Assembly (NCBI GenBank): GCA_964654285.1 | Contig: CAZZJC010000021.1 | Span: 5,249-69,248 of the forward strand | From: an uncultured Candidatus Kuenenia sp. | GTDB lineage: Bacteria > Planctomycetota > UBA11346 | Reading direction: 5' to 3' | Length of the DNA stretch: 64,000 nt | Part shown: positions 9,118 through 64,000 of the stretch, one piece after another | Layout: every line of letters begins with the position of its first letter | Numbering within the stretch: the first letter of the stretch is position 1 | Notes under the pieces: model-generated | What the model was told of the DNA's origin: nothing | Databases searched by the model: none | What the model saw: only the letters and a program-made list of their open reading frames with translations | Position numbers and translations under genes: made by a program

Positions 9118-9147
9118 ACCCTCGGATTTCTCCGAGGGTTTTCCGCT
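9118..9147. terminator. Bidirectional intrinsic terminator between convergent PQQ-propeller gene and glnA
   Basis: gaaaaccctcgga-tttc-tccgagggttttc has perfect 13-bp arms. An A-run lies on one side and a T-run on the other, so it reads as hairpin plus T-tract on both strands. It sits 21 bp downstream of the glnA stop. Confidence 0.7.
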
Positions 9148-9167
9148 GTTCTGCCGATCTCTACGGA

Positions 9168-39356: not shown

Positions 39357-39458
39357 GGGGCGTCCTCGTCGCTTCAGCATGATTCCAGGCGGATCGGCGC
39401 CAGATGCGACAGGCCGTCCCGCCTTGCCCCGGCCAGGTCGCACCTAGCCTGCCCGGCC

Positions 39459-40700: not shown

Positions 40701-40703
40701 GCG

Positions 40704-42771: not shown

Positions 42772-42963
42772 CCGAGGCTCGGACGGGGTTGCCACCTGCG
42801 AACGGGATCGGGGCGGGGGGATGGCCGCAAAGTGAGCCAAAAGCACGAAGGTTTGGGATCCAATAGAAAGGATCCTGGTACAGACCGCTTCCCTGGGGAA
42901 TCGGAAGGCCCGCTCTGGCGTGGGTAGGGTCTGGCGGCACACTCGGCCGCACCGCAGCACCCC

Positions 42964-43755
42964 ATGTTCCGACGCAAGACCGATCAGATCTTCGACACGC
43001 TCCAGGCGGTGCAGCGGCGCATCACGGAACAGGGTGGTGCGCCACCACGTCCGCCGGTGCCGGCCGCCCCGGCAGTGCGCCCGATCCTGCCCATCGGCAA
43101 GGCCCGGCCGACGACCGAGATCCCGCCACCACCACCCGGCCCGCCACCGTCTCCGGTTCGTGCCGCAGGTCCGCCACCCCTCTCGCCGCCACCGGCTCCA
43201 CCGACGCTGTCGCCGCAGTCCGCCCTGGCGCGGGCCGCGACCCCGACCGCCTACACCCCCAATCCGCCAGGCGGCCCGCCACCGTTGATCACCTTGTCGC
43301 TGTCGCAGGTCATCACCGTGCTGATCGCCTGGCTGGGATCGCTCGCCCTGGTCTGGGTGGTCGCAGCCCGGTCGAGCGATCCCATCCCACCACGCGAACC
43401 CACGTCGTCCGGCAACGCCTACCAGCAGCAGCCGGCCGAGTTCCAGCCTAAACGCCACATCATCGTTTTGACCTCGGTGCCCAGCACGGAAGAGCGCTCG
43501 GTGAAGGCGCTGCAGGCCCAATGCGAGCAGCTCAACGAGCAGATGCGCCGCAGCAAATCCGGAAAGTACAAGCCGTGGTTCAGCGTCCGCCCGCACCCGA
43601 ACGGCCAGACCGAACTGATCTTCGGCGCGACCGAAGGCCAGGACGGCATCGATCGCAGCCAACCGCAGTGGGCGGACTTCTTCCGCTTGCTCGCAGCGCC
43701 GGCCAAGGACAAGGGCGCGGGGTTCAGCCGGGCGCAGTGGCGGCCGGTGAATTGA
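42964..43755 (+). CDS. Hypothetical proline-rich membrane protein
   Basis: A Pro-rich stretch (PPPPPGPPPSPVRAAGPPPLSPPPAPP), then a TM helix (ITVLIAWLGSLALVWVVAA), then a ~110-aa C-terminal domain. Confidence 0.5.
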   Translation: MFRRKTDQIFDTLQAVQRRITEQGGAPPRPPVPAAPAVRPILPIGKARPTTEIPPPPPGPPPSPVRAAGPPPLSPPPAPPTLSPQSALARAATPTAYTPNPPGGPPPLITLSLSQVITVLIAWLGSLALVWVVAARSSDPIPPREPTSSGNAYQQQPAEFQPKRHIIVLTSVPSTEERSVKALQAQCEQLNEQMRRSKSGKYKPWFSVRPHPNGQTELIFGATEGQDGIDRSQPQWADFFRLLAAPAKDKGAGFSRAQWRPVN

Positions 43756-44950: not shown

Positions 44951-45050
44951 CTGGGCGCAGGTCCGCCCTTGGGCCGGCTTGCCCGTGCCGGCCAGCGTCA
45001 CATGCTGCGCGACCCGCCAGAACCGCGATGCCGCGCTGAGGAATGACGCC

Positions 45051-47717
45051 ATGACCGAGCCGAAAGCCTACGAACCCGCCGTGGTCGAAGCGAAGTGGCA
45101 GCGCCAGTGGGAAGCCGCCGGCGCGCACGAGGTGCGCGACGACCTGCCGCGCGAGCGCTGCTACTACGTGCTGGAGATGTTCCCGTACCCCAGCGGCAAG
45201 CTGCACATGGGGCACGTGCGCAACTACACGATCGGCGACGCGGTGGCGCGCTACAAGCGCATGCGCGGCTTCGCGGTGCTGCATCCGATGGGCTGGGACT
45301 CCTTCGGCCTGCCGGCCGAGCAGGCGGCGATCGAACGCGGCATCCACCCCCGCAAGTGGACCTACGAGAACATCGCCTACATGCGCGACCAGCTGAAGCG
45401 CATGGGCTTCAGCTACGCGTGGTCGCGCGAGTTCGCCTGTTCCGACCCCGGCTATGCCGCGCGCGAACAGGACATCTTCCTCGATCTGGTCGAGAAGGGC
45501 CTGGTCTACCGCAAGTCGAGCCTGGTGAACTGGTCGACCGGCCTGAACTGCGTCCTCGCCAATGAACAGGTCGTCGACGGCAAGTGCTGGCGCACCGGCA
45601 CGGTGGTGGTGCAGAAGGAGCTGCCGCAGTGGTACCTGCGCATCACCGCCTACGCCGAGGAGCTGCTGGAGAGCACCTGGAGGCTGTCCGGCTGGCCCGA
45701 GGCGGTGCTGATCCAGCAGCGCAACTGGCTCGGCAAGAGCGTCGGCGCCGAGATCGACTTCACCGTCGATGGACACCCGGACGTGAAGCTGACCGCGTTC
45801 ACCACCCGGCCCGACACCCTGTTCGGCGTGACGTTCGTCTCGATCGCGCCCGAGCACGCGGCCCTGGCGCGCATCGTGCCCGCCAGCCACCGCGCGGCGG
45901 TCGACGCCTTCACCGCCGAGGTGCGCGCGGTGTCGGCGCATGAACGCCTGGGCGACGCGGCGGAGAAGAAGGGCTGCTTCTCGGGCGTGCACGTGATCAA
46001 CCCGGCGAACGGGAGGAAGGTGCCGCTCTACCTCGCCAACTTCGTGGTCGCCGACTACGGCACGGGCGTGGTGATGGCGGTGCCGGCGCACGACAGCCGC
46101 GACTTCGCCTTCGCGAGGAAGTACGGCATCGACATCGTCACGGTGATCCGCGCCAGCGACCCCAAGGACGCCGGCTGGCTGAAACTGCAGGCGGGCGAGG
46201 ACGCGTTCACGGACGCGGGCGTGATGCAGAACAGCGCCCAGTTCGACGGCCAGCCGAGCGAATCGGCCAAGGCCGCGATCACCGCCTGGCTGGAGGAGCG
46301 GAAGTCCGGCCGCAAGACCGTGACCTGGCGCCTGCGCGACTGGTGCCTGAGCCGGCAGCGCTACTGGGGCAACCCGATCCCCTACCTGTACAGCGACAAG
46401 CTGGGCGCGACCCCGCTGCGCAAGCAGGACCTGCCGGTGACCCTGCCCGACGACGTGGCCTTCGACGGCGCCGGCAATCCGCTCACCCGGCATCCGACCT
46501 GGGCCGCGACCGACCGCGACGGCAGGGCGCTCAGCGTGCGCGGCCCCGACGGCCCCGAGCCGGCGCGGCGCGAGACCGACACCATGGACACCTTCGTGGA
46601 GTCGTCGTGGTACTTCGCGCGCTACACCTGCCACGACAACCGCAAGGCGGATCTCGGCTGCGCCGCGCCGCTCGACCGCACGCGGGTCGACCACTGGCTG
46701 CCGGTCGATCTCTACATCGGCGGCATCGAGCACGCCGTGCTGCACCTGCTCTACGCGCGCTTCTTCCAGAAGGCGCTCGCGGATCTCGGCTACACCGGGG
46801 TGCGCGAACCGTTCAAGCGCCTGCTCTGCCAGGGCATGGTCTGCATGGAGACCTATTCGCGCGAGACCGGTCCGGGCAAGAAGCAGTACTTCTACCCGGA
46901 TGAGGTCGAGATCCGCACCGACGCCAAGGGCGCGGTGGTCGGCGCGACGCTGAAGGCCGACGGCCAGCCGGTGACCGTGGGCCGCATCGAGAAGATGTCC
47001 AAGTCCAAGCGCAACACCGTCGATCCGCAGCGTTTGGTCGATGCCTACGGCGCCGACACCGCGCGGCTGTTCACCCTGTTCGCCGCACCGATCGAACGCG
47101 ACCTGGACTGGGACGAGGAGAGCGTCAAGGGCTGCAGCCGCTACCTCAAGCGCCTGTGGACCCTGGTGCAGGAGCACCGCGAGCGCCTGGCCGGCATCAG
47201 CGCGTTCGCCGGCCACGCCAGGGAACTGGCCGGCCACGACCAGGCGGTGGTGCGCAAGGTGCACCAGACGATCAAGCGCGCGACCGACGCGATGGAGCGC
47301 GACTTCGGCTTCAACACCACCATCGCCGCCTGCATGGAACTGACCAACGAGCTGAAGCCCGACGCGCTGAAGCCCGAGGTCTTCAAGCTGGGACTCACCA
47401 CCCTGGTGCGCCTGCTCGCGCCCATGGTGCCGCACATCACGAGCGAGCTGTGGGCCGAACTCGGCGGCGGCGACGACCTGACCGGCGCCGGCTGGCCGGC
47501 GTTCGATGCCAGCCAGATCGATGCCGACGAGGTCGACTACCCGGTGCAGGTCGCCGGCCGGCTGAAGGGCCGGATCAGCCTGCCGCGCACCCTGGTCGGC
47601 AAGGATCTCGACGCCGCCGTCCTCGCCCACCCCGAGGTGGTCGCGCTGATCGCCGGTCAGAAGGTGCGCAAGCTCATCGCGATCCACGGCAAGATCATCA
47701 ACCTCGTCCTGGGCTGA
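45051..47717 (+). CDS. leuS: Leucine--tRNA ligase
   Basis: ...MFPYPSGKLHMGHVRNYTIGD... is the HIGH motif, and ...KMSKSKRN... is KMSKS. Length 888 aa. The ORF-track start at 44979 is 24 codons upstream. Confidence 0.95.
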   Translation: MTEPKAYEPAVVEAKWQRQWEAAGAHEVRDDLPRERCYYVLEMFPYPSGKLHMGHVRNYTIGDAVARYKRMRGFAVLHPMGWDSFGLPAEQAAIERGIHPRKWTYENIAYMRDQLKRMGFSYAWSREFACSDPGYAAREQDIFLDLVEKGLVYRKSSLVNWSTGLNCVLANEQVVDGKCWRTGTVVVQKELPQWYLRITAYAEELLESTWRLSGWPEAVLIQQRNWLGKSVGAEIDFTVDGHPDVKLTAFTTRPDTLFGVTFVSIAPEHAALARIVPASHRAAVDAFTAEVRAVSAHERLGDAAEKKGCFSGVHVINPANGRKVPLYLANFVVADYGTGVVMAVPAHDSRDFAFARKYGIDIVTVIRASDPKDAGWLKLQAGEDAFTDAGVMQNSAQFDGQPSESAKAAITAWLEERKSGRKTVTWRLRDWCLSRQRYWGNPIPYLYSDKLGATPLRKQDLPVTLPDDVAFDGAGNPLTRHPTWAATDRDGRALSVRGPDGPEPARRETDTMDTFVESSWYFARYTCHDNRKADLGCAAPLDRTRVDHWLPVDLYIGGIEHAVLHLLYARFFQKALADLGYTGVREPFKRLLCQGMVCMETYSRETGPGKKQYFYPDEVEIRTDAKGAVVGATLKADGQPVTVGRIEKMSKSKRNTVDPQRLVDAYGADTARLFTLFAAPIERDLDWDEESVKGCSRYLKRLWTLVQEHRERLAGISAFAGHARELAGHDQAVVRKVHQTIKRATDAMERDFGFNTTIAACMELTNELKPDALKPEVFKLGLTTLVRLLAPMVPHITSELWAELGGGDDLTGAGWPAFDASQIDADEVDYPVQVAGRLKGRISLPRTLVGKDLDAAVLAHPEVVALIAGQKVRKLIAIHGKIINLVLG

Positions 47718-47739: not shown

Positions 47740-48031
47740 AGGGCACACCATGGCCGACCAGCCCGCCATCGTCTTCAACGGCACTGCGATCCCGGCGACC
47801 CCGACCACGCCGGGGAGCGATCTGCTCGGGCTGATGCTCGACGCCAAGGCGAACGTGCGGTTCCTCTGCATGGGCGGTTCGTGCCGGCAATGCCGGGTGG
47901 AACTGGTCTCGGGCGGCGAGCATCTCGAACCCAAGTCGGACGGCGAAGCGTGGGGTTGCCCGGATGATGGCGCGCGTCTCGCCTGCCAAGCCATCCATCG
48001 CGGCACCGGCACCGTGGTGCTCAAGCAATGA
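47740..48031 (+). CDS. Small 2Fe-2S ferredoxin-like protein
   Basis: MADQPAIVFNGTAIPA...CMGGSCRQCRV...LACQA has a CX4CX2C...C pattern. A GGGAGAGGG RBS is present. The stop overlaps the start of the next gene (ATGA). Confidence 0.6.
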
Positions 48032-50073
48032 TCGACCATCCCTTCGCCATCCAGATCATCGCCGAGCCGGAACAGCGCGGCACCTTGGCCAGCAGGATCG
48101 AACGCCTGCCCGACTCCGATCGGCCACGTTGGCGCCTGACCTTCACCGCCGGTGCGGAGGTATTCCGGGGTCGGTTGCGCATCGTGCTGCCGCTCGCCAC
48201 GCCGACGGTGCCGTGGTTCCTCATCCCCGGCTATTTCTACGGCCAGGGCCGCACCGATCCGAAACTCAACACACCGACGCTCGGTCGCCTCGGCGCCGAC
48301 CGCTGGACCGCGCCGGCGTGGGACATCGCGCTGGAACGCGCCGCGTATCCGTTGGTGCTCGCCTTCCACGGTGGTCGCTGGCGCGGCCTGGACGCCGAGC
48401 CGCACCATCGCCTCTACGGCGCCCCCGACCGGCCGGCGACCTGGGGCAACGACGAGCCGCAGATCGGTCTTGGGCTCGCCTGGGACGACGGTCAGGGCCA
48501 CGTCGCCATCAACCTGCCAGCGTTCGAGGGGCCGCTGCGCCAGGTGCGCCACCGCCATGACGGCGCGTTGGCGCGGCGGCTGACCCTGCCGGCCGGGGCG
48601 CGACTCGAACTCGACGTCGGCGTCTGGGATTTCCCTGGCGACGCCCACGGCTACCAGCCGGTGCTGGAACGGCTGTACCGCGAACTCAAGCCGCAGCATC
48701 CCAGCGCAGCCGAGGAACCGCACGACGAGCTCGCCGCCTGCGCCGCGCACGGCTTGAAGGCCTGGCACTGGACGCCGGCGGCCGGCGGCCGGCCGGGCTA
48801 CTTCGTCTACACCGCCGCGCTCGACCGCAGCGTCGAGTTCAACGCCAACGTCAACCGGAAGACCTCGCTCGGTTGGCACTTCGACGCCACCGGCTTCGTC
48901 GGCGGCTTCCCGGTCGCGTTCGGGCTGGCCTGGCAGGGTCTGCGGCAGAACGATGCGGAATCGCTGGCGATCGTCGACCAGTACGTCGACCGCCTCTGCC
49001 GCGAGGCGCCGGCGCCCAACGGCCTGTTCCGCACCAGCTACCATCCCGGCCGCGCGCGCACACCGAACGGCGAATTCGCCAACGGGCCGGACACGCCCGG
49101 TTATGGATCCTGTTGGCAGGGCGGCACCGCGGTGGCGCATGCGCGCACCACGGCGGATGCATCGTTCCACCTCGCCCGGCTCATCGGCCTCTTCGGCGCT
49201 GAACGCCGGCCAGCGTGGCGGTTGGCGCTCCGCCGATCGCTGGAGGCCGCCCTGCGGTTCCAGGATGCCGATGGCCGGCATCCGCAGCTGTACGACCTGG
49301 CCGCGGATCGGCCGCAGCAGCGCGACGGCTGCGGCGGCCTGACCTGGATCCCGGCGATGGAAGCGGCGCATGATCTCTTCGCGGACGATCCGGATCTCCA
49401 GGAACGTCTGCGCGATTCCATGCTTGCCGCCGGTGCGGGCTACGCCCGCGACATCGAGGCGGAACGCATCTACGGCGCGCCCGAGGATGTCAGCCTGTCG
49501 CCCACCAGCGAGGACGGCTACGCGGCGGTGATGGCCTATGCCGGTCTGCACCGGCGCTTCGGCGCTGCTCCGGGTGGAGGCGATCCGCGTTGGCTGCCGC
49601 TGCTGGTGCGCGCCGCCGACTGGATGCTGACCTGGCGCAAGGCCTACAATGTGCGCTTCGATCCGCGCAACATCCTTGGCGCAGGAGGACTGCGCACGGT
49701 GGGGGGCGACTTCGCCTCCATGAACAACAACCACCTGCACGTCTACGGCATGAACTGCCTCGGCGAGCTGCATCGGCTGACGGCGATCACCGGCAATCCG
49801 TACTACGCCGAGCGCGCCGACGACCATTTCCGCTTCACCTGCCAGCTGCTGTGCAAGGTCGACGGCCAGTGGAACGGCCAGCGCGGCATGCTGACGGAAC
49901 AGTTCTACACCTCCGACTGGTCGATCTGGGACGGCTGGGATCCGACCCCGGCGCACGTGCAGAAGGGCACCCTGATGGGCTTCAGCCATTCGTGGTGCAT
50001 CAACATGGTTCTGCTGGGGCTGTCTTCAGCGGGACACTGCCGGCTCTGCCCTGGACCCGGATTGACCAGATAG
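48028..50073 (+). CDS. Uncharacterised 681-aa protein, possibly (alpha/alpha)6-barrel hydrolase/lyase-like, translationally coupled to the ferredoxin-like gene
   Basis: A long ORF with coding character. Segments such as ...GGDFASMNNNHLHVYGMNCLGELHRLTAITGNPYYAERADDHF... and ...SHSWCINMVLLG... suggest a helical-barrel enzyme. No confident family assignment. Confidence 0.5.
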   Translation: MIDHPFAIQIIAEPEQRGTLASRIERLPDSDRPRWRLTFTAGAEVFRGRLRIVLPLATPTVPWFLIPGYFYGQGRTDPKLNTPTLGRLGADRWTAPAWDIALERAAYPLVLAFHGGRWRGLDAEPHHRLYGAPDRPATWGNDEPQIGLGLAWDDGQGHVAINLPAFEGPLRQVRHRHDGALARRLTLPAGARLELDVGVWDFPGDAHGYQPVLERLYRELKPQHPSAAEEPHDELAACAAHGLKAWHWTPAAGGRPGYFVYTAALDRSVEFNANVNRKTSLGWHFDATGFVGGFPVAFGLAWQGLRQNDAESLAIVDQYVDRLCREAPAPNGLFRTSYHPGRARTPNGEFANGPDTPGYGSCWQGGTAVAHARTTADASFHLARLIGLFGAERRPAWRLALRRSLEAALRFQDADGRHPQLYDLAADRPQQRDGCGGLTWIPAMEAAHDLFADDPDLQERLRDSMLAAGAGYARDIEAERIYGAPEDVSLSPTSEDGYAAVMAYAGLHRRFGAAPGGGDPRWLPLLVRAADWMLTWRKAYNVRFDPRNILGAGGLRTVGGDFASMNNNHLHVYGMNCLGELHRLTAITGNPYYAERADDHFRFTCQLLCKVDGQWNGQRGMLTEQFYTSDWSIWDGWDPTPAHVQKGTLMGFSHSWCINMVLLGLSSAGHCRLCPGPGLTR

Positions 50074-50414
50074 GCGCAACACCGCGTCCTTCCGCTACCT
50101 ACCCGCTTGCCCGGATGGGCGGGGGGCGCTGCGCTGCCCCGCCACGTCACAAATAGGCGCTACGCTGTGCTGTACTGCCCTGGCCGCTGGTTCTCATGCT
50201 GAATGAGGTGTCATCGGACTGGGTGGAAGCTTTGCCGCGCCCTACGGCTTTCTTCTGCGGGGCGCTGCCGGCAGAACCCCGCACGTCAGCGCGCGCGCCA
50301 AAGGGCAAACGGCTCCGCGTTCATCACTTCCCCTTCCCACGGCTTCAACCGGCCGGCGGCCGTGGGGTCGAGGGGCGATGGCCCCTCGCGGGGGCCGGGG
50401 CAGCGCCCCGCACG

Positions 50415-51383
50415 TCAGTTGCCGGTCCAGAGGAACGCCATGCCGGGTTGGAGCAGGCGGGTCAGGTCGCCGGCGTCGAGGTTGATGCCGTTGACGACCT
50501 GCGGGGGGTGGGTCTGGGCGTCGGCGATGAAGCCGAAGGACAGGGTGCTGCGTTCGTAGCGGAAGACGGCGGCTTCCTTGACCTTGGCCAGGCGGCGGGC
50601 TTCGGCGAGGGCTTCGGGCAGGTGGCCGAAACCGTCGACCAGGCCGAGGGCCAGGGCCTGTTCGCCGGTGTAGACGCGGCCGTCGGCGAGCGGGCGCAAT
50701 GTCGCTTCGGCGGCAGCGGTGTCGGCCGGCACCGGGCCTCGGCCCTTGCGGCCCTGCACCACCACCGCCAGGAACTGGGCGTACAGCTGGTCGATCATGC
50801 CTTGGATGAGGGCACGTTCGTCGTCCTTCATCGGGCGGAACATGCTGCCCAGATCCTTGCGCGGGCCGCTGGTGATGACGTTCATCCCGACCCCGATCTT
50901 GCCTGCCAGACCCATGATCTCGGGGCTCATGAAGATCACCCCGATCGATCCGGTGAGCGTTCCTCTGCCGCAGAGCACGGTGTCGGCAGCGCATGCGATG
51001 TAGTAGCCGCCACTGGCGCAGACGCTGCGCTGAAGAGCCACCACCGGCTTGCCCTTGGCACGCAGGGCGAGCACCCGGGCGTGCACGGCATCGCTCGCCA
51101 CCACGTCGCCGCCGGGCGTGTCGAGGGTCACCACGATGGCCTTCACCGCGTCATCCTGTTCGGCCATGCGCAGCTGCCGGCAGACTTCATCCATGCCGCC
51201 GCCTTCGCTGAAACGGCTGCCGCCAAAGCGGATCGGGCCCCTGATGTCGACCACCGCGATGCGGGCCGGGCCCGAGCCTTCCTCCTCGATGGCGGTCTGG
51301 CGCCAGCTGCGGTCGTGGCTGATGCAGCCGGCGACGAACAGGACGCAGGTGCAGAGGGCTGCGGCGGACAGGATGCGGCGCAT
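50415..51383 (-). CDS. sppA: Signal peptide peptidase SppA (36K type, S49 family)
   Basis: MRRILSAAALCTCVLFVAGC is a signal or lipoprotein-like leader. ...IVVTLDTPGGDVVASD... and ...SVCASGGYYIACAADTVL... match the S49 ClpP/crotonase fold. It is the real gene inside the artefactual 1387-aa ORF. Confidence 0.8.
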   Translation of the reverse strand: MRRILSAAALCTCVLFVAGCISHDRSWRQTAIEEEGSGPARIAVVDIRGPIRFGGSRFSEGGGMDEVCRQLRMAEQDDAVKAIVVTLDTPGGDVVASDAVHARVLALRAKGKPVVALQRSVCASGGYYIACAADTVLCGRGTLTGSIGVIFMSPEIMGLAGKIGVGMNVITSGPRKDLGSMFRPMKDDERALIQGMIDQLYAQFLAVVVQGRKGRGPVPADTAAAEATLRPLADGRVYTGEQALALGLVDGFGHLPEALAEARRLAKVKEAAVFRYERSTLSFGFIADAQTHPPQVVNGINLDAGDLTRLLQPGMAFLWTGN

Positions 51384-51629
51384 GGGACGGCTCCAGGTCG
51401 GGGATCCGCAGCGGGTGCGGACGGCAGAGAGGACTACCGGCCCGAGGCAGGGCCGGAAGGGTCCAGCCGTCGATCCTGCGGACGCATCGACGGGCTGCCC
51501 TGCCTGGGTATGTCCGCGGTCCAGCCGTTTTACGAACCGATCCGGCGCGGGATCCGGGCGGGATGCGGGTCTGCAGAGATACGGCGCACCGGGCCGCGCG
51601 GCCTGGACTTTCCTGGGGTATGCTGGTCC

Positions 51630-54600
51630 ATGCCTGAAGTTTCGACGAGCGGCCATGGCCGGGAATTGGCGAACGGGACCAGCGTCGGGATGTACCGCAT
51701 CACGGGGCAGCTGGGCAAGGGCGGCATGGCGGTGGTCTACCGCGCGGTGCATGCGGCGCTCGGGCGCGAGGTCGCGCTCAAGGTGGTCTCGCCGCAGTTC
51801 GCCGAGGATCCGACCTTCCGTTCGCGCTTCCTGCGCGAGGCGCAGGTGGCGGCGCGGATCAACCATCCCAACGTGGTGACCTGCTTCGATGCCGGCGAGG
51901 GCGACGGCCGGCTGTTCATGGCCTTGGAACTGGTCACCGGCGGCGATCTGCTCGATCTGCTCGATCGCCGTGGCGGCCGGCTCGACGAGGTGCTCGCGCT
52001 CGGCCTCATGCGCGACGCCCTGGCCGGGCTGGAGGCGGTCGAGGCGGCGGGCCTGGTGCACCGCGATATCAAGCCGGCCAACATCTTCATCACCGACGGC
52101 GGCCAGGCCAAGGTCGCCGATCTCGGCCTGGCGCGGGTCAGCGGCAACGACCAGGTCACCCAACCGGGCGTGATCATGGGCACGCCGGCGTACATCGCGC
52201 CGGAACAGGCCAACGGCGTGCCGGATCTCGACATCCGCGCCGATCTCTACTCGCTCGGGGCGTCGCTCTACCATCTGCTGACCGGCCAGCCGCCGTTCTC
52301 GTCCGACAGCGCGGTGGCGACGCTGATCAAGGCGCTCAACGAACCGGTGCCCGACCCCGCCATCCTGCGGCCTGACCTCACGCCCGGCTGCCGCACGCTG
52401 ATCCTGCGCCTGATGGAAAAGGACCGCAACCGCCGCCATGTCTCGGCCCGGCAGGCGCGCGAAGAGGTCGAAACGCTGCTCACCGGCCGCCAGCCCGAGC
52501 TCGCCTCCGGCGGCCATCCCGGGGTGCGCACCCAGCGCCTCGCCGCCGCGCCGGTGCGCGATCCGGCCCTGGTGCGGGCGGTGGAGCAGCGCGACGCCGG
52601 CCAGGTGGAACCGAACGCCGAGCGGCAGCGCACCACGGCCGCGCCGGCGCAGCCCACGACCGAACGGCGGCGCAGCGAGACCAGCCTCGCCCCGTCGCGC
52701 CCGGATTCCGGCAGCAACCGTCCGGCCTCGGCTTCGGATCGCCAGCGCACCCAGGCAGGCGAACGTCCGGCCACGCCGACGCCTGCGGCGCCAGGCCCGG
52801 GTACCGACCGCCAGGGCCCTGCTCCTGACCGCCAAGGCTCCGCCGCTGACCGCCACGGCTCCGCCTCGGACCGCCAGCGGGTGCAGACCGGGGATCGTTC
52901 GCGCTCCAGCCCGGCGGTGACCGCGAAGTCCGGCGGCCCGGCCACGCCGGCTCCGCGACCGGCCACGCCCGCCCCGCCCGGTTCCGGCCAGCCGCCGGCG
53001 AACCTGCGCATCGACCCGACCCAGCTCGCCCTCCTGGTCAAGCGCATCATCGTGGATTTCGAGGCCATGACGGCAGCGATCGTCCTCGCGCCCGGCGCCA
53101 GCTTCCCGCGCTTCCTCCTCGACCAGATCATCAGCGGGGCGGGCATCGTGCATGGCCTCATCCCCGGCGCGATCCACGAGACCACGCGCACCAGCCAGGT
53201 CGCGCGGCGGATCGTGCTCGCGCGCGGCGATCCGCCCAGTCCGGGCTTTCCCGGCCGCAACGTGCGCGGCGAGGACATCCCGGCGCTGGAGGTGCCGCTG
53301 ACCATCCGCATCAGCGACGACGCGATGACCGCGTGGGCGTTCAGCAAACCGAACCTCATCGTCACCCGCGAGGCGCTGGAGCCGATCCTCAAGCGTTCGG
53401 GCATCCGCTACGGACTCGACCTCGATGCGCTGCGCAAGCTCGTCGACGGGCCACCCGCCCCCGATGGCCGCCGCGCCATCGCCCGCGGCCGGCCGATGGA
53501 TCCGGGCCGCGCAGCCGGCTTCGTCCCGCCCGGACGCGAGGGCGGCACGCCGGATCTCGCGACCGTGGCCAACCTGCAGGAAGTGCCGGCGGGCACCGTG
53601 CTCGGCACCTTCACCGACGCCGAACCCGGCATCCCCGGCATGGACGTGCTCGGACGCGAACTGCCCTGCCCGAAGCTGGAAGCGATCCCGCCGGAACAGC
53701 TCGCCGGCGAGGGCACCGAGATCGGGCGCGACCGCGACGGCCGGCTCGTCCTGCGCTCCACCCGCCAGGGCATGGTCGTCCGCAATCCCGACGGCGTGGT
53801 GCGGGTGGTCGGCGTGTTCGAGGTCAAAGGCGACTTCGGCCCGGGCGACCCGCCGATCGAGACCAACGACGTGGTGGTCATCCGCGGCGCGGTGAAGGAC
53901 GGCGCGAAGATCAGCAGCGCCAGCGATGTCTTCGTCTGCGGCGACCTGCACGACGCCGAGATCAGCGCCGGCGGCAGCCTCCAGGTCGAAGGCGCCATCC
54001 ACGGCGGCGACCAGGCCCTGGTGGTCGGCGAGACCATCGTCGCCGAATCGTGCGAGGTCCGCCGCGTGCTCGCGAGCTCGGTGCGGATCACCGGCGAGGT
54101 GCGCAACTGCGAGATCCGCGCCACCGGCAAGATCAGCGTCGGCAGCATCGCCGGCGGCAGCCTGGTCGCGGGCGGCGATGTCGACATCGGCACCGCCGGC
54201 GACCTCGCCGGCACCACCACCGAGCTGTGGGCCGGCCACAGCCTGAGCTATTCCGAGCAGGAGCGCCTGTCGCGCCTCGACGACCAGCGCCGCGAGGCCG
54301 AACGCACCCGCCTGGTCGACGAGGCCAAGCTGCTGCACGCCGACCTCGCCGACGCCGAACTGAAGAAGAAGCGCCACGCCAGCGCCAGCTACGCCAACCG
54401 CGACCACCTCCAGGCGATCGAGGCCAAGCTGCGCCAGTTCGAATCGGCGCAGGAGAACCTGCGCAACGCCGCCGAGGAGCACCGCAAGGCGCTGGAGAAG
54501 CGCCGCGCCGCCAGCGACCGCCTGAGGAAGCTCGGCGACAACACCGAGGCCCGCGTCTCGGTGAAGGTCGTCGCGCACAAGGGCGTCGTCGCCCGCCTCG

Positions 54601-54659
54601 CCGACATCGAACCCGAGGTGCTGGGCGAATCCAGGCTGCGCTACACCTTGAAGATGTGA
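51630..54659 (+). CDS. Ser/Thr protein kinase fused to a C-terminal DUF342/FapA-like beta-helical domain via a long disordered linker
   Basis: Kinase motifs GQLGKGGMAVVYRA...VALK, HRDIKPANIF, DLGLA and GTPAYIAPE. Then about 170 aa of low-complexity sequence with a repeated (S/P)DRQ motif. Then ...VVIRGAVKDGAKISSASDVFVCGDLHDAEISAGGSLQVEGAIHGGDQALVVGETIVAE...CEIRATGKISVGSIAGGSLVAGGDVDIG, which are FapA-like G/D beta-helix turns. A coiled coil ends the protein. It is the real gene inside the artefactual 1487-aa ORF 50196..54659. Confidence 0.8.
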   Translation: MPEVSTSGHGRELANGTSVGMYRITGQLGKGGMAVVYRAVHAALGREVALKVVSPQFAEDPTFRSRFLREAQVAARINHPNVVTCFDAGEGDGRLFMALELVTGGDLLDLLDRRGGRLDEVLALGLMRDALAGLEAVEAAGLVHRDIKPANIFITDGGQAKVADLGLARVSGNDQVTQPGVIMGTPAYIAPEQANGVPDLDIRADLYSLGASLYHLLTGQPPFSSDSAVATLIKALNEPVPDPAILRPDLTPGCRTLILRLMEKDRNRRHVSARQAREEVETLLTGRQPELASGGHPGVRTQRLAAAPVRDPALVRAVEQRDAGQVEPNAERQRTTAAPAQPTTERRRSETSLAPSRPDSGSNRPASASDRQRTQAGERPATPTPAAPGPGTDRQGPAPDRQGSAADRHGSASDRQRVQTGDRSRSSPAVTAKSGGPATPAPRPATPAPPGSGQPPANLRIDPTQLALLVKRIIVDFEAMTAAIVLAPGASFPRFLLDQIISGAGIVHGLIPGAIHETTRTSQVARRIVLARGDPPSPGFPGRNVRGEDIPALEVPLTIRISDDAMTAWAFSKPNLIVTREALEPILKRSGIRYGLDLDALRKLVDGPPAPDGRRAIARGRPMDPGRAAGFVPPGREGGTPDLATVANLQEVPAGTVLGTFTDAEPGIPGMDVLGRELPCPKLEAIPPEQLAGEGTEIGRDRDGRLVLRSTRQGMVVRNPDGVVRVVGVFEVKGDFGPGDPPIETNDVVVIRGAVKDGAKISSASDVFVCGDLHDAEISAGGSLQVEGAIHGGDQALVVGETIVAESCEVRRVLASSVRITGEVRNCEIRATGKISVGSIAGGSLVAGGDVDIGTAGDLAGTTTELWAGHSLSYSEQERLSRLDDQRREAERTRLVDEAKLLHADLADAELKKKRHASASYANRDHLQAIEAKLRQFESAQENLRNAAEEHRKALEKRRAASDRLRKLGDNTEARVSVKVVAHKGVVARLADIEPEVLGESRLRYTLKM

Positions 54660-57162: not shown

Positions 57163-57314
57163 GGAGTTCCTTGGGCCACAGGGTTCACGGAACGTCCCTG
57201 GGCAGGCGGACGTTCGCTGCACCGGTCGCCCCCGCAACGACGAGCTTCCGACCTCGGCGCCGGCGCCGACTCCACCGCCCCTTCCCACGCCGACCGCCGC
57301 TCCAGCATGCCGCC

Positions 57315-58628
57315 ATGCCCTTCGCCCCGCCTTCCGCCCCGGTCGTGCAACTCGCCCTGGATTTCCTCAACCTCGAACCCGCGCTGCGCTGCGCCCATGA
57401 GGCCGAACCGGCCGGCTTGCAGTGGGTCGAGGCCGGCACGCCGCTGATCAAGTCGGTCGGGCTGGAGGCCGTGCGCCGCCTGCGCGCCGAGTTCCCGCGC
57501 GCGGTGGTGGTCGCCGACATGAAGGTCATGGACGCGGGCCGCACCGAGGTCGAAGCAGCCAAGAAGTCCGGCGCCGATCTGGTGATGGTGCTCGCCGCCG
57601 CGTCGGACGCGACGATCCAGGAGTGCGTCACCGCCGGCCGGCATCTTGGCGTCGCGATCGGCTGCGACCTGGTGAACTGCGCCGATCCGGTGGCGCGGGC
57701 CAGGCGCTGCGAAGAGCTCGGCGTTGACCTGGTCAGCGTCCACACCCCGATCGACGTGCAGATGACCGGCGCGGACTCCTTCGCACATCTCGCGGCGGTG
57801 GCCCAGGCCGTGCGCATCCCGGTCGCCTGCGCCGGCGGCATCAGCCCGGCGAGCGCCCCGCGTGCGGTCGCGGCCGGGGCGCGGGTGGTCATCGTCGGCG
57901 GCGCCATCACCAAGGCGCCGGATCCGCGCGCCGCGCTGGCGGCGCTCAACGCCGCCCTGGCCACCGGCACGGTCAGTGCGGAAGACGCCGGCCGCTTCCG
58001 CCGGCTCGGGCTGGACGAGATCCGCAAGGTGCTGGAAAAAGTCTCGACCCCGAACCTGTCCGACGCGATGCATCGCGGCGGCGGCCTGCACGGCCTGGTC
58101 AGCCGCAATCCCGCGAAGCGCCTGTGCGGCCCGGCGTTCACCGTGCTCACCGCGCCCGGCGACTGGGCCAAGCCGGTGCAGGCGATCGACGAGGCCAAGC
58201 CGGGCGACGTGCTGGTGATCGACGCCGGCGACGACTATCCCGCGATGTGGGGCGGCCTGGCGTCGCTCACCGCGGTGCAGCGCGGTCTGGGCGGCGTGGT
58301 CATCCGGGGCGCGTGCCGCGATCTCGCCGACATCGTCAGCTCAGGCCTCGCCCTGTGGTCGACCAGGACCTGCGCCGACGCTGGCGAACCACGCGGCCTG
58401 GGCTGCTTCGGCATCCCGCTGGTGCTCGGCGACCAGGCCATCCGCCCCGGCGACTGGCTGGTCGGCGATGAAGACGGCCTCGTCGTCATCCCCGCCGCCC
58501 AGGTGGTCGAGGTCGCCAACCGCGCCGCCGACGTGAACGAACGCGAGACGCGCCTCGCCGCCGAGATCCGCGCCGGCCACAGCCTTTCGACCCTGGCCGA
58601 ACTGAAGCGCTGGGAACAGCGGCGCTGA
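57315..58628 (+). CDS. Bifunctional 3-hexulose-6-phosphate synthase-like (OMP-decarboxylase fold) / RraA-family domain protein
   Basis: N-terminal ...VVQLALDFLNLEPAL...GTPLIKSVGLEAVRRLRAEFPRAVVVADMKVMDAGRTEVEAAKKSGADLVMV... matches HPS/KGPDC. C-terminal ...LSDAMHRGGGLHGL...GDVLVIDAGDDYPAMWGGLASLTAVQRGLGGVVIRGACRD... is an RraA/MenG-like fold. The ATG at 57315 is preferred over the ORF-track start at 57171. Confidence 0.7.
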   Translation: MPFAPPSAPVVQLALDFLNLEPALRCAHEAEPAGLQWVEAGTPLIKSVGLEAVRRLRAEFPRAVVVADMKVMDAGRTEVEAAKKSGADLVMVLAAASDATIQECVTAGRHLGVAIGCDLVNCADPVARARRCEELGVDLVSVHTPIDVQMTGADSFAHLAAVAQAVRIPVACAGGISPASAPRAVAAGARVVIVGGAITKAPDPRAALAALNAALATGTVSAEDAGRFRRLGLDEIRKVLEKVSTPNLSDAMHRGGGLHGLVSRNPAKRLCGPAFTVLTAPGDWAKPVQAIDEAKPGDVLVIDAGDDYPAMWGGLASLTAVQRGLGGVVIRGACRDLADIVSSGLALWSTRTCADAGEPRGLGCFGIPLVLGDQAIRPGDWLVGDEDGLVVIPAAQVVEVANRAADVNERETRLAAEIRAGHSLSTLAELKRWEQRR

Positions 58629-58678: not shown

Positions 58679-59635
58679 TCAGCGCAGATGGCGGCGCATC
58701 AGCCGGCGGGTGATGGCATGCAGGCCTTCGGGATCCTCGTTGTCATGCCCATAGTAGTACACGGATAGATGGTCCGGCAGCGGCCCGGACAGATAGGCCT
58801 CGAGATTCGTCTCGTAGATGCCATGGCTCGAGGCCGGGGTCAGCATGTTCTCGACCAGGGCGAAGGTGCCGAGCCCGGCGGCCTCGGCCTCGGCGGCGAA
58901 GCGGGCGCGGATGCGCGGGTCATCGATGCGGTATTTGAACCAGCCGACCTCGCCGCTGCGACGCCACTGGGGCGCCAGGTTGCCGTCGTAGCCATGGAAG
59001 TTCAGACCCGCCGCCCGGCTGACCACCTGGGTGAAACCGGGCGGATCGGTGTCCTGGGCGAAGAGGGTGATGGACAGTTCCGGGCGCAGGCTGCGGGCCA
59101 GCAGATTCAGCTCGCTGAGCAAGTCGCGGTAGGCGACTGCCGTGTCGGCCGGGGTTCCGGGCCGGCCCAGGGCGGCGATGGTGTCGGGGTGGCTGCTGCC
59201 CAGCTTGGTGCCCTTGGGTTCGTCCCAGATGATGCCATCGACGCCGTGATCCGCGACGAGGGTACGTACCAGCTTGCGCAGGTGCTCGCGGTAGAGCGGG
59301 CTATGCAGGCAGGCGAGGGGCCCAGTGACCGGTTGGGGCCCGGGTTCGCCGCATTCCGGATGGGCGGCCAGGAACAGGCTCGGCATCAGGGGCGCACCGG
59401 CCATCCGTCCGCCGATCCGGCTCGGGATCGCCAGCGCCCGCATCCCCCTGGACTGGATCATGCGCACCTGGCGGGCGAAGGTGTGGTATCCGTAGACGTC
59501 ATCGCTCTCCGAATAGGACAGGGCGACCGCGTTGAAACCGCACGCCGCCATCTCCGCCAGATCCTCCTCGATCTGATGCGGGATGACGGTCCAGTTCTGG
59601 TAGCTCAGGGTGTAGGCGGATATCAGCGTTGGCAT
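58679..59635 (-). CDS. Hypothetical protein (possible TIM-barrel glycosyl-hydrolase-like)
   Basis: MPTLISAYTLSYQNWTVIPHQIEEDLAEMAACGFNAVALSYSE...GVDGIIWDEPKG.... It is the tail of ORF 58679..60802, whose upstream part is an artefact. Confidence 0.45.
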   Translation of the reverse strand: MPTLISAYTLSYQNWTVIPHQIEEDLAEMAACGFNAVALSYSESDDVYGYHTFARQVRMIQSRGMRALAIPSRIGGRMAGAPLMPSLFLAAHPECGEPGPQPVTGPLACLHSPLYREHLRKLVRTLVADHGVDGIIWDEPKGTKLGSSHPDTIAALGRPGTPADTAVAYRDLLSELNLLARSLRPELSITLFAQDTDPPGFTQVVSRAAGLNFHGYDGNLAPQWRRSGEVGWFKYRIDDPRIRARFAAEAEAAGLGTFALVENMLTPASSHGIYETNLEAYLSGPLPDHLSVYYYGHDNEDPEGLHAITRRLMRRHLR

Positions 59636-59887
59636 GGGTTCTCGTCGCGTACAGGAGTGACTGCCCGGTGCACCGTGGACACCGGCGAGGGTCCAGGCGA
59701 TCGCGCAGCAGTCAATCTTGACGCCCATGCCTGATCCGCCTGATGCGGATGCCAGCCGCCGACCCGCTCCTCCCCGGCTGGAAGCAGCCGCCGCTGAGCC
59801 GGCAGCGAAGACCGTTCTGCCAGGCGCAGGCGGGATGGTCCGGGTGGGCGTCTTGTCCGGATCCGGGGACGGCCCTACCGTCCGGGC

Positions 59888-60826
59888 ATGGCCCCGCCGA
59901 ACGTGCTCCCGCCCGGCACCGTCGTGTGCGGCTGCGTCATCGAACGGGCGATCGGGCGCGGCGGCATGGGCACGGTCTACCGGGCGCAGCAGGTGTCGCT
60001 CGACCGCGTCGTCGCGGTGAAGGTGCTGCACCCCGGGCGCTGCCGCGACGTGAACCAGCTCGAGGCCTTCCGCCGCGAGGCGCTGGCCACCGGCGCGCTG
60101 CTCCATCCCAACCTCGTCCGCATCCATCAGGTCGAGATCGATCCGGCGCGGCTGCTCGCGGCGTACAGCATGGACCTCGTCCCCGGGCAGAGCGCCACCG
60201 CGCTGCTCGCGGCGCGCGGGCCGTGCGGCCGGGCCCAGGCGCTCGACATCACGGCCCAGGTCGCGGATGCGCTCGGCTACGCCCACCGCAAGGGCGTGGT
60301 GCATCGCGATGTCAAACCGGACAACATCCTCATCGATGCCGAGTTCAACGTGAAGCTGCTCGATCTCGGCCTCGCGCACGACCTCTTCGCCGGTGCGTCC
60401 CAGGCCGCGTCGGTGCACCGCATCTCGCTGGTCGGCACGCCGCAGTGGTCGGCGCCGGAGCAGCTGCGCAACCCCAACCGGGCGGTGCCGGCGAGCGATG
60501 TCTGGAGCCTCGGCGCGACCCTGCATTTCCTGCTGACCGGTTCGCCGCCGTTCAGCGGCGAGACGGTGATCGACCTCATCGTGCGCATCGCCACCGAACC
60601 CCTGCACCTGCCCCTCAACCTGCCGGCCGACTGCGCCCGGCTGCTCCAGGCCATGCTGGTGAAGGATCCCGCGCACCGTCTGCGCGACGGTGCGGCGGTG
60701 GTCGATGCCATCGGCCGGCTCAGCGACGGCCAGCCGTTCGATCTTCCCGAAGGCGAGACCGCGTCGGATGGCCCCGCCGGCCCGGGCGTGGTCCGGCGCC
60801 ACCGCCGCCGCTTCAGGTTGCGCTGA
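59888..60826 (+). CDS. Ser/Thr protein kinase (kinase domain only)
   Basis: GRGGMGTVYRA...VAVK, HRDVKPDNIL, DLGLA and GTPQWSAPE. Confidence 0.8.
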   Translation: MAPPNVLPPGTVVCGCVIERAIGRGGMGTVYRAQQVSLDRVVAVKVLHPGRCRDVNQLEAFRREALATGALLHPNLVRIHQVEIDPARLLAAYSMDLVPGQSATALLAARGPCGRAQALDITAQVADALGYAHRKGVVHRDVKPDNILIDAEFNVKLLDLGLAHDLFAGASQAASVHRISLVGTPQWSAPEQLRNPNRAVPASDVWSLGATLHFLLTGSPPFSGETVIDLIVRIATEPLHLPLNLPADCARLLQAMLVKDPAHRLRDGAAVVDAIGRLSDGQPFDLPEGETASDGPAGPGVVRRHRRRFRLR

Positions 60827-61814: not shown

Positions 61815-62828
61815 ATGAACAGCCGCGAGCGCGTCAAGCGCACCATCGAGTTCCGCAACCCCGACCGCGCCCCGCGCGACCTCTGGCAGCTGCCGCTGCT
61901 GCGCATGCGCCAGGGCGCGGCGGTGGTCGACGCCTTCGAAGCCCGCTGGGCGCGCGACATCCGCCAGGCGACCGGCCGCAAGAACAAGGCGGTGATGACC
62001 CGTGGCGACGCCACCGCCCTCGGCGAATACCGCGACGAATGGGGCTGCGTCTACGTCAACAAGACCGCCGGCCTCATGGGCGAGGTCAAGGATCCCGTCC
62101 TGGCGGACTGGGACTTCGACCGCATGCACGTGCCGACCGAGCTCCTCGATGTCGACCTTGAGAAGGTCAACGCGTTCGCCACCAACTGCGAGCAATACGT
62201 CCTGGCCTCGGGCTGGGCCCGGCCCTTCGAACGCATCCAGTTCCTGCGCGGGACCGAGAATGTCTACATGGATCTGGCGCAGGACTCGCCCGAGATCCGC
62301 AAGCTGATCGACATCGTGCACGGTTTCTACCTCAAGGACATGCAGACCTGGGTGAAGACCCCGGTCGATGCAGTCGTCATCATGGACGACTGGGGCATGC
62401 AGCGGTCGCTGCTCATCCGCCCGGCGATCTGGCGCAAGGTCTTCAAGCCGCTCTACAAGGAATACTGCGACCTCGCGCACAGCCACGGCAAGCACGTCTG
62501 GATGCACTCCGACGGCTACATCCTCGACATCCTGCCCGACCTCATCGAGATCGGGGTCAACGTCATCAACAGCCAGCTCTTCTGCATGCCGATCGAGGAG
62601 ATCGGTCAGCGCTGCAAGGGGAAGATCGCGTTCTGGGGCGAGATCGACCGCCAGTACGTCCTGCCCACCGGCACGGTGCGCGAGGTCGAGCAGGCGGTGG
62701 AGCGGGTGCATCAGAACCTGTGGCAGAACGGCGGCTGCATCGCCCAGTTCGAATGGACGGCCGAGACGCCACCGGCCAACGCCGAGGCGGTGTATGCCAC
62801 GTGGGATCGCCTGACCGCCACGCGCTGA
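61815..62828 (+). CDS. Uroporphyrinogen-decarboxylase (URO-D) family protein
   Basis: MNSRERVKRTIEFRNPDRAPRDLW... is the characteristic URO-D-like N-terminus. An AGGAGA RBS is present. It is divergent from the AraC regulator. Confidence 0.6.
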   Translation: MNSRERVKRTIEFRNPDRAPRDLWQLPLLRMRQGAAVVDAFEARWARDIRQATGRKNKAVMTRGDATALGEYRDEWGCVYVNKTAGLMGEVKDPVLADWDFDRMHVPTELLDVDLEKVNAFATNCEQYVLASGWARPFERIQFLRGTENVYMDLAQDSPEIRKLIDIVHGFYLKDMQTWVKTPVDAVVIMDDWGMQRSLLIRPAIWRKVFKPLYKEYCDLAHSHGKHVWMHSDGYILDILPDLIEIGVNVINSQLFCMPIEEIGQRCKGKIAFWGEIDRQYVLPTGTVREVEQAVERVHQNLWQNGGCIAQFEWTAETPPANAEAVYATWDRLTATR

Positions 62829-62868
62829 TACCCCTTCTGGCGCGTCGGTTTCCCATCCACATCAACAA

Positions 62869-64000
62869 GGATGCCCCATGCCCCGATGCCTCCACGCGTT
62901 CCTCGCCCTCGCCAGCCTGTCGGTCCTGCCGGCCGGCGAGGCGCCGTTCGGCGCCGATGACTGGAAGGCCTCGCCCACCGATCCGGTCGGCTTCGCCGGC
63001 CAGGGCGGCCACTGGTATCCAGGCGCGACTCCGCCGAGCGAGTTCTGGGAAGGAACCCCGGTCGAGACCGAGGTGAAGAACGCCGAGGGCAAGGTGCGGA
63101 AGGAATGGGGCTACGCCGACCAGAAGGCGAAGAACATCCTCTGGAAGGTCGCGGTGCCGGGCTGGAGCGACAGCCTGCCCGTCGTCGTCGGCAAGCGGGT
63201 GATCAGCCTGACCTCGCCGCACTACGTGACCTGCTACGATGCCGACACCGGCAAGGTGCTGTGGCAGGATGCGCTGAAATTCATGACCCTGCCGGTGCTG
63301 GCCAAGGACCGCAAGTCCATCGGACCGGTTCCCGACCCGGCGAAGGCCGTCGCGCAGCAGCAGCTGTTCGAACTCACCCTGGGCTGGTGGCGGGCGCGCC
63401 TGGGGGCGACGGCGACCTACCGGGACAACAGGGCGCCGGTGGATCTGACCCCGCGCAAGGAATTCATCCAGAGCCTGATCCCGGATCTGGAAAGGTGGAA
63501 GAACGAATTGAAGGGCGCCTACCCCGATATCGGGCCGGTCCTGGACGGCGAGATCGCCTTCCTCCAACGCTGCCTCAAGCCGGGCGAAGATCTCAGCGTG
63601 GTGCCGGCGGGCATGAAATCGCACCGCCACGCCGTCTACGCGGGCAAGGTTCCGGCGACGGTGTCCGCCGGTCCGGACCTGATCTTCTACGCCGGCGAGA
63701 AGCTGGGCGTGCCGGCGGACGACACCTTCTGCAATGGCTGGCAGGGGAACCACAGCGACACCATGGCCACCCCGGTCAGCGATGGCGAGATCGTCGGCGT
63801 CACCTTCGGCCATGGGCAGATCGCCGCATATGAGGTGGTCACCGGCAAGCGGCTGTGGGCCTGGCGCGATCCGCAATTGTTCGCCAGCAGTGCGGGACAT
63901 TGCCAGTCACCGCTGCTGTGGAAGGATCTGCTGCTCGTCCCCGGCGGCGGGATGAGCGCCAAGCGGGGCAAGTCGGATCCGGACAGCTACACCATGACCA
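62869..64000 (+). CDS. Secreted PQQ-like beta-propeller repeat protein, paralog of 7100..8767 (3' end beyond window)
   Basis: MPRCLHAFLALASLSVLPAGEA is a signal peptide. WKVAVPGWSDSLPVVVGKRVISLTSPHYVTCYDADTGKVLWQD parallels WEFRLKGWGHSSPVVVQDQVIVTIEA...VDLKTGKERWR in the first paralog. It reads openly to position 64000. Confidence 0.6.

Follow-up and report, generated by a model that had tools for sequence, protein, structure and literature searches.

The FapA (DUF342) proteins are understood essentially from one functional system, Vibrio flagellar assembly. The FapA orthologue of V. cholerae has a mass of ~60 kDa and FapA is bound by EIIAGlc in its dephosphorylated form only (PMC6877527), while in V. 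vulnificus the protein is brought to the flagellated pole by HubP (PMC12918733). In Borrelia, fapA adjoins flgV and flhG, an association of fapA with fliA modules has been reported, and in other phyla the gene is located beside flhG, flhF and fliA (PMC11607428). For the Ser/Thr kinases (STKs) of the Planctomycetota, 105 accessory domains and 307 architectures have been catalogued, with protein-interaction domains such as WD40 and TPR often being present (PMC11032199). The gene described here joins the two families. It is found within a stretch of 64,000 nucleotides (hereafter the window) of contig CAZZJC010000021.1 (positions 5,249 to 69,248; assembly GCA_964654285.1, filed as an uncultured Candidatus Kuenenia sp. 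of the Planctomycetota), where it occupies 51630..54659 of the plus strand (stop codon included) and encodes a 1009 amino acid kinase-linker-FapA protein. Such a fusion had been proposed in an earlier examination of the DNA letters (the sequence-only reading) and was confirmed by Pfam matches to Pkinase, FapA_N and FapA lying far above their gathering cut-offs. We consider it probable, although well short of certain, that the FapA module serves as a scaffold for docking or self-association, which would position and activate the soluble kinase.

Gene and Reading Frame

Translation of 51630-54659 on the plus strand gave 1009 codons with zero internal stops, and the frame represents one intact gene for a kinase, a disordered tether and a complete FapA/DUF342 unit. 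An identical 1009 amino acid product (P0001) has been called on an independent assembly, beside a gene for a 322 amino acid Peptidase_S49 protein. Furthermore, the end-to-end alignment of 70 homologues spans both the kinase and the C-terminal parts, which excludes a frameshift between them. The G+C content at third codon positions (GC3) of the gene, 0.85, fits its plus-strand frame.

The G+C content of the window is ~70%, at which stop codons are rare, and this explains two run-on open reading frames (ORFs) in the six-frame listing, one of 1487 amino acids (50196-54659, plus strand) and one of 1387 amino acids (50415-54578, minus strand). Both had been put down as frame artefacts in the sequence-only reading, and rightly so, as their translations are nonsensical outside the sppA and kinase parts. 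The first ~478 codons of the 1487 amino acid ORF are meaningless, being the antisense of sppA, and are followed by the kinase from MPEVSTSG...MYRITGQLGKGG onwards. The 1387 amino acid ORF is sensible in its last ~330 codons only (a lipoprotein-like SppA), the remainder being antisense to the kinase gene. As spurious ORFs of more than 1000 amino acids do occur in this window, it may be asked whether the fusion is itself an artefact, with a separate kinase and fapA having been joined by frameshift, misassembly or high-GC read-through. The probability of this is negligible, given that the frame is uninterrupted and fits the codon-position G+C content, that the identical product was assembled independently, and that the continuous architecture is present in ~71 independent clusters (from NCBI, JGI, ENA and Logan) with G+C contents of 45–70%. 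Frameshift and misassembly were rejected on the basis of this conservation of the fusion.

The candidate start codons are at 51630 or, less likely, at 51690. A start upstream of 51690 is favoured because the family-conserved 'IG' precedes the G-loop of the kinase. No transmembrane-like helix was identified, with the top 19-mer on the Kyte-Doolittle scale scoring 1.66 in a segment with charged residues, and the protein is predicted to be soluble and cytoplasmic.

Kinase Domain

The Hanks-type Ser/Thr kinase domain (residues 20-290; 51687..52499, plus strand) was matched by Pkinase (PF00069) over residues 22-276 with an E value of 3.5e-45 (154.9 bits against a cut-off of 31.7), and was modelled with predicted local distance difference test (pLDDT) values above 90. 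Its motifs include the Gly-rich loop GKGGMAVV, K51 (VALK), E70 and H144-R-D146-x-K148-P-x-N151, followed by D164-L-G166, G184-T185-P and P191-E192-Q (APE). The catalytic residues within these motifs are strictly invariant in the 71 aligned sequences, with the exception of K51 (conserved in at least 90%). In Hanks kinases, a conserved Thr in the activation loop usually signals activation by autophosphorylation, and the activation-loop T177 of this protein is Thr or Ser in 66 of the 71. Judged by its motifs, the domain is apparently a kinase of the RD class which retains every catalytic residue and looks active. A full-length AlphaFold2 model, built as a monomer on the 71-sequence family alignment, had a mean pLDDT of 80 and a predicted template modelling score (pTM) of 0.55, with the kinase (20-290) and the C-terminal module (457-1009) mostly above a pLDDT of 85.

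The NCBIfam models indicated generic kinase similarity only, with every match below its equivalog cut-off. One of these matches was to MADS6 (149.6 against a cut-off of 460), and strong PADLOC matches to the PD-T4-6 and mad6 models were also obtained (E values down to 3e-87), as would be expected of an antiphage kinase of the PD-T4-6/Stk2/MADS6 type that triggers abortive infection. However, the PADLOC matches are confined to residues ~15-390, a stretch that takes in the generic kinase fold and some of the linker. In addition, the gene has a housekeeping context with no defence island, and its distribution is lineage-wide rather than patchy. A role in defence is extremely improbable on this evidence, and the reading was rejected as the matches are generic to the kinase domain.

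Linker and FapA Module

Residues 292-456 (52503..52997, plus strand), which are rich in A, P, R, S, G and T, are predicted to form a disordered linker, with a pLDDT of below 50 over the ~165 residues. This agrees with the ~170 amino acid disordered linker of the sequence-only reading, as do the DRQ repeats which it had pointed out. Five DR(Q/H) motifs are present, at residues 370, 393, 400, 407 and 414, and Tandem Repeats Finder identified a 21-nucleotide (7 amino acid) tandem repeat of xxxDRQG units in ~4 copies at 52789..52877 on the plus strand (period 21, 3.4–4.3 copies, 72–82% matches). Within the family the linker is 29-171 amino acids long (median of 54) and has an overall composition of 19% P, 16% A, 13% T and 9% S. 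Only this protein and its 88%-identical closest relative have a linker of ~170 amino acids (170-171), and the long DRQ-repeat form is peculiar to this genome and that relative.

The C-terminal part of the protein was matched by FapA_N (PF20250) in three stretches, the best being residues 558-718 (E value of 2.7e-22, 79.4 bits against a cut-off of 27), and by FapA (PF03961) at residues 731-992 (E value of 2.2e-24, 87 bits against a cut-off of 31), the latter match spanning positions 4-251 of the 272 in the profile. A separate AlphaFold2 model of residues 456-1009 reached a pLDDT of 86 and a pTM of 0.77 with unchanged secondary structure, pLDDT being 86-96 over most of the solenoid and ~82-92 over most of the hairpin described below. 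Therefore, the FapA-type beta-helix that had been expected at residues ~620-900 is matched by both Pfam models and predicted confidently as a beta-solenoid with a hairpin. The assignment to FapA holds, whereas the proposed start of the domain at ~620 does not, as the conserved module begins at ~457.

The module opens with two FapA_N-type alpha/beta repeats. The first (residues 457-556; 52998..53297, plus strand) was delimited by hhalign, the models and kinase-less relatives and ends in ARGxPxxPG, and the second (residues 557-652; 53298..53585, plus strand) by PF20250 and hhalign. Homology between the two was detected by hhalign with a probability of 98.2% and an E value of 2.9e-14, and the modelled alpha/beta units, at ~473-542 and 559-629, each close with ARGxPxxPG. 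A beta-rich connector with the motifs GMDVLGR and GEGTE follows at residues 653-723 (53586..53798, plus strand), as indicated by conservation, modelled strands and its position within the PF20250 match. The beta-solenoid is predicted at residues 724-870 (53799..54239, plus strand) from PF03961, the models and the MinC matches given below, its first rungs being similar to the C-terminal domain of MinC. It is built of short periodic strands in both models and has many invariant glycines in the family alignment.

After the solenoid, DSSP on both models assigned an antiparallel helical hairpin with helices at residues 874-918 and 924-965 (54249..54524, plus strand). The helices of the 'terminal coiled coil' proposed earlier are thus present; however, they do not make up a separate terminal element but form an intramolecular hairpin, and as this falls inside the FapA Pfam domain it is part of FapA. 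The protein finishes with beta strands at residues 976-1007 (54555..54650, plus strand), which contain the conserved VAHxGVVxRLAD and are predicted by the models to return to the solenoid. Most of the 559-residue query (451-1009) is covered in alignments with kinase-less relatives (~560-630 amino acids; P0147 over its residues 5-546), and the C-terminal 553 amino acids constitute a whole FapA unit, the V. cholerae FapA being likewise of ~60 kDa. Four giant proteins, P0162 (3620 amino acids), P0203 (1775), P0208 (1481) and P0200 (1219), have 4-8 FapA-type stretches each, with P0203 having seven FapA_N stretches ahead of a FapA solenoid at its terminus. FapA_N can therefore be repeated as a module.

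Similarity to MinC and Bactofilins

When PDB chains were searched by sequence, the only solved-structure relatives were C-terminal domains of MinC, namely those of Aquifex (4V02 chain C; E value of 7e-4 with the single sequence, improving to 1.7e-4 with the family profile) and Thermotoga (1HF2 chain A; E value of 0.027 with the family profile). The Pfam model MinC_C (PF03775) matched residues 750-793 below its cut-off (E value of 0.016, 15.6 bits against 33.2) and was also matched weakly in relatives. The NCBIfam minC models gave E values of 0.013-0.096, far below their cut-offs. MinC_N had no match in the Pfam search of the protein, and the N-terminal FtsZ-inhibiting domain of MinC is absent.

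These matches, together with the conservation of the gene across the lineage, would fit a MinC-like regulator of division or polarity, in which the solenoid binds a MinD/ParA-type ATPase and places the kinase at the division site or pole. Planctomycetota include members which divide without FtsZ. Nevertheless, the similarity covers ~46-56 residues only and, in addition to lacking the N-terminal domain, the protein differs in the RSGQ-type motif, which is MinD-binding in E. coli MinC. Where 4V02 has RAGQ and 1HF2 has RSGQ, this protein has KDGA, the family consensus being xAGA. The gene has no adjacent minD, parA or fts, and MreB is present in the window. Such a regulator is very unlikely on balance.

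No match to the bactofilin Pfam family was obtained at E ≤ 1, and the solenoid is instead detectably related to the C-terminal domain of MinC; the description 'bactofilin-like' in the sequence-only reading was therefore dropped, and bactofilin was rejected as an identity of the module. The term 'polymerising' could not be upheld either, as no tool result indicated polymerisation of FapA and literature searches found no paper on its polymerisation or structure.

Distribution and Lineage

A word-indexed search of 5.8 billion proteins, clustered at 90% identity, identified 71 clusters (P0001-P0071) of 846-1009 amino acids which are 35-88% identical to the query, all with the precomputed architecture Pkinase + FapA_N + FapA. 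Several members have been labelled automatically by JGI as 'serine/threonine protein kinase/uncharacterized protein (DUF342 family)' and some by NCBI as 'FapA family protein [Planctomycetota bacterium]'. The fusion was not described in any paper returned by literature searches on DUF342/FapA in combination with kinases, MinC or Planctomycetes (one match, PMC5182063, deals with DUF3426 rather than DUF342), and neither FapA nor DUF342 occurs in the text of PMC11032199 or in the supplementary tables consulted. The remark in the sequence-only reading that the fusion is not commonly described thus holds for the literature and not for the databases, where a well-populated family of one lineage exists. 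The architecture is undescribed in papers yet visible in databases, and both of its domains belong to well-known families.

The C-terminal module (residues 451-1009) was also searched with HMMER against 1.84 billion representatives at 50% identity. This gave 4,558 FapA-type matches at E < 1e-3 and 57 at E < 1e-30, the top matches being mostly proteins of 845-897 amino acids in which the match begins near residue 300. Of the full-length representatives at this identity level, at least 20 have a recognisable kinase. A scan of species-representative genomes with a C-terminal profile returned 21 loci, all in metagenome-assembled genomes (MAGs) of Planctomycetota, and one further weak, ordinary FapA from a Firmicute.

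For the LeuS protein of the window, 85 relatives were found at ≥60% identity, all of them from Planctomycetota MAGs, before identity drops to 52% in other phyla. These relatives placed the window to the level of the phylum only. This abrupt drop indicates that the window comes from a deep lineage without a cultured member, and the kinase-FapA gene can be regarded, as far as these searches reach, as a conserved gene of a deep uncultured lineage of Planctomycetota.

The closest relative is encoded on contig CAMCMZ010000003.1 (locus L002), which has a G+C content of 69% and 86-94% protein identity with the window. The G+C content of Kuenenia is ~41%. As this conflicts with the 69% observed, the label of that MAG, 'Candidatus Kuenenia stuttgartiensis', is probably wrong.

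Pseudokinase-FapA Sister Clade

A sister clade was formed by P0133, P0134, P0136-P0138, P0142 and P0143 (845-897 amino acids), with P0139 being intermediate. These proteins have the same order of kinase fold, linker, FapA_N and FapA, and their C-terminal modules are 31-34% identical to that of the kinase-FapA protein. In contrast, alignment to the active family indicates that the Gly-rich loop, the VAIK Lys, the HRD Asp and the DFG motif have been lost, and Pkinase matches are weak or absent. Most members also have a conserved RSxxFNxxDIxxH-like segment before FapA in place of a low-complexity tether. Their genes (loci L030-L033) stand alone on sulfatase-rich contigs. At L030 and L031, a gene for a low-molecular-weight phosphatase (LMWPc) is located 43 bp upstream in the same orientation.

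The series from active to dead kinases implies that the pairing of kinase fold and FapA is under selection even without catalysis. The existence of the clade suggests that the kinase fold, next to the FapA module, may also act as a scaffold or allosterically.

Proposed Function

According to the docking-scaffold explanation, the FapA module would be the non-catalytic part of the protein, serving in targeting and self-association, and would dock on a partner protein or cellular site in the manner of Vibrio FapA, the only FapA known to be brought to the pole by HubP and sequestered by dephospho-EIIAGlc. Docking would concentrate the tethered kinase domains at that site, where they could trans-autophosphorylate on Thr177 and possibly also on the S/T-rich linker. 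Substrates within reach of the flexible tether would then be phosphorylated.

The FapA module could otherwise serve as a sensor input that binds a signalling protein and switches the kinase on or off allosterically, which would make the protein a one-component sensor kinase of the cytoplasm. The binding of Vibrio FapA to EIIAGlc depends on phosphorylation state (PMC6877527), accessory interaction domains are common in Planctomycetota STKs (PMC11032199), and surfaces for interaction are suggested by the two conserved repeats with ARGxPxxPG. However, a disordered tether which varies from 29 to 171 amino acids would not readily transmit an allosteric signal, and no gene of the phosphotransferase system, or for another candidate ligand, is conserved nearby. 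A sensor role is rather unlikely in our estimation, and it is compatible with the docking-scaffold explanation.

A number of points weigh against docking as the function of the module. The precedent for it is one from gammaproteobacterial flagellar biology, and no flagellar genes flank the kinase-FapA gene. Kinase activity, oligomerisation, localisation and a partner are predictions only. The modelling gave a monomer only, without inter-domain confidence and with a full-length pTM of 0.55. A Foldseek search of the C-terminal model against PDB returned nothing below an E value of 0.5, only ribosomal L27-like and beta-helix noise; FapA is taken to be without a solved structure because of this result, and the fold assignment has no solved FapA structure as its anchor. 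Finally, the 85 LeuS relatives compared with 71 kinase-FapA clusters suggest approximately one copy per genome, a figure which rests on cluster counts and not on complete genomes, and one MAG (L021) carries two tandem kinase-FapA paralogues (4173-6797 and 6873-9548) with intact kinase motifs.

A broader proposal would treat the kinase-FapA proteins and the pseudokinase clade as a core spatial organiser of this uncultured lineage. The MinC-like solenoid and the hairpin would self-assemble, or dock a MinD/ParA-type ATPase, at the pole or division site, and the tethered kinase would write a local phosphorylation mark controlling division, polarity or appendage placement. The chances of this are slim, although if true it would be a kinase-based positional system without a described bacterial counterpart.

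Genomic Context

The kinase-FapA gene is situated among housekeeping genes (leuS, sppA and an aminotransferase gene). Upstream, leuS (44979-47717, plus strand) is followed by an ORF of 681 amino acids (48028-50073, plus strand), which had no Pfam match at E ≤ 1e-3 and has a coding-like GC3 of 0.86, and then by sppA (Peptidase_S49; 50415-51383, minus strand). The last of these is divergent from the kinase-FapA gene, as the sequence-only reading had stated, and gene coordinates leave a shared intergenic region of 246 bp (51384..51629), presumably with a promoter. The limits of sppA and of this spacer were fixed from the 322 amino acid Peptidase_S49 neighbour in the independent assembly. No sigma-70-like promoter, Rfam family, tRNA or convincing terminator was found around the kinase-FapA gene.

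Downstream, the order is a convergent class I/II aminotransferase gene (minus strand), a phospholipase A1 gene (minus strand), an OMPdecase/HUMPS-RraA fusion (plus strand), a kinase-only STK (plus strand) and an AraC-type regulator. The OMPdecase/HUMPS and RraA-like aldolase fusion is of 485 amino acids (57171-58628, plus strand); it has 64% identity to its counterpart at locus L018 and is also present at L025. The kinase-only gene (59888-60826, plus strand), 5 kb downstream, encodes a second Hanks-type STK of 312 amino acids consisting of the kinase domain only, and at L025 a kinase-only gene is likewise found near the fusion gene.

The sppA and aminotransferase neighbours are shared with the closest MAG (L002) only. 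The recurrent neighbours among the 21 loci are a convergent yraN/UPF0102 gene (7/21) and a suhB-like gene (5/21). At L003, L006, L007, L010, L012, L015 and L025 the yraN/UPF0102 gene is tail-to-tail with the kinase-FapA gene and sometimes overlaps its 3' end. The recurrence of yraN and suhB probably reflects residual synteny and not function. As the neighbours differ and no conserved partner is present, the gene is considered to be monocistronic and stand-alone. No flagellar, min/par, FHA or PP2C genes were found on three long Pfam-annotated contigs, the neighbours there being unrelated, and no FHA or PP2C gene was found in the flanks within the window.

This context bears on the possibility that the protein is the FapA orthologue of its lineage and a flagellar regulator, the kinase of which would phosphorylate the linker, FapA or FlhF/FlhG-type regulators, thereby controlling flagellar number or placement. 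Both FapA Pfam models were passed, fapA is located beside flhG, flhF and fliA in other phyla (PMC11607428), and a methyl-accepting chemotaxis protein gene in the window indicates that the organism is probably motile. On the other hand, no flagellar genes were found within ~10 kb in the window or in the related loci (~25 examined), and the closest kinase-less FapA relatives (P0147 and P0154; ~625 amino acids, with 28-30% identity across the entire module) likewise lie outside flagellar clusters. A flagellar role is consequently judged unlikely, and a docking scaffold is preferred.

The methyl-accepting chemotaxis protein gene (11907-13385, plus strand) and a gene for MreB (26491-27543, plus strand) mark the organism as one with chemotaxis signalling and an actin-like cytoskeleton. 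Glutamine synthetase and GlnD are also encoded in the window, at 9168-10751 (minus strand) and 18141-20909 (plus strand), respectively. The ORFs at 39444-40916, 41839-43662, 58769-59734 and 62566-63900 had no Pfam match at E ≤ 1e-5. At the beginning of the window (1-3200, minus strand) an open frame of at least 1066 amino acids runs off the window start. It has a subtilase-like Ser motif (GTSMSSPNAAGS) and then at least six tandem Ig-like repeats of 95 amino acids, which correspond to a tandem DNA repeat at 397-2063 of 5.8 copies of a 285-bp unit. The units are ~90% identical, which suggests recent expansion or homogenisation of the repeat in a large secreted or surface protease.

Significance and Comparison with Known Systems

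FapA/DUF342 is a large family without a solved structure; the module matched over 4,500 of its representatives at 50% identity. The fusion and its dead-kinase clade provide a 'Rosetta-stone' hint that FapA modules may be general docking or assembly scaffolds beyond flagellar operons, tied to Ser/Thr phosphorylation. The gene also adds an uncatalogued soluble architecture to the kinase expansion of Planctomycetota and singles out a conserved and testable gene of a lineage without a cultured member, with the pair of active and dead kinases offering a useful comparison. The advance is modest, as the domains are known, the fusion was already visible by automatic annotation and the function is inferred.

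Compared with the PknB/Stk1 Hanks kinases, the protein has a similar catalytic core (NF033483 aligned over residues 22-347 with 290.8 bits), the same RD status, a conserved activation-loop Thr and an S/T/P-rich stretch after the kinase domain. It differs from the PASTA kinases of this group in falling below the equivalog cut-off of NF033483 (450), with the kinase part only being aligned, and in having no PASTA match and no transmembrane helix, the accessory module being a cytoplasmic FapA instead of an extracellular sensor. The Planctomycetota are known for expanded STKs with many accessory domains, and a multidomain kinase is in keeping with this; however, ~80% of those STKs are membrane proteins (PMC11032199), whereas the kinase-FapA protein is predicted to be soluble.

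With regard to the solenoid, bactofilins are similar in that a beta-helical fold is predicted for both, but the module is without a bactofilin Pfam match. The C-terminal beta-helix of MinC aligns with the first solenoid rungs (residues ~747-802); this similarity is local, and minD is not near the gene. The FapA proteins of Vibrio (V. vulnificus, and VCA1085 of V. cholerae) resemble the C-terminal module as a whole, having a full FapA unit of similar size, and act in docking without being enzymes. In contrast to these, the kinase-FapA protein is from Planctomycetota and not Gammaproteobacteria, is encoded outside a flagellar gene neighbourhood, and adds to its FapA unit an N-terminal kinase, a tether and a clearly duplicated FapA_N.

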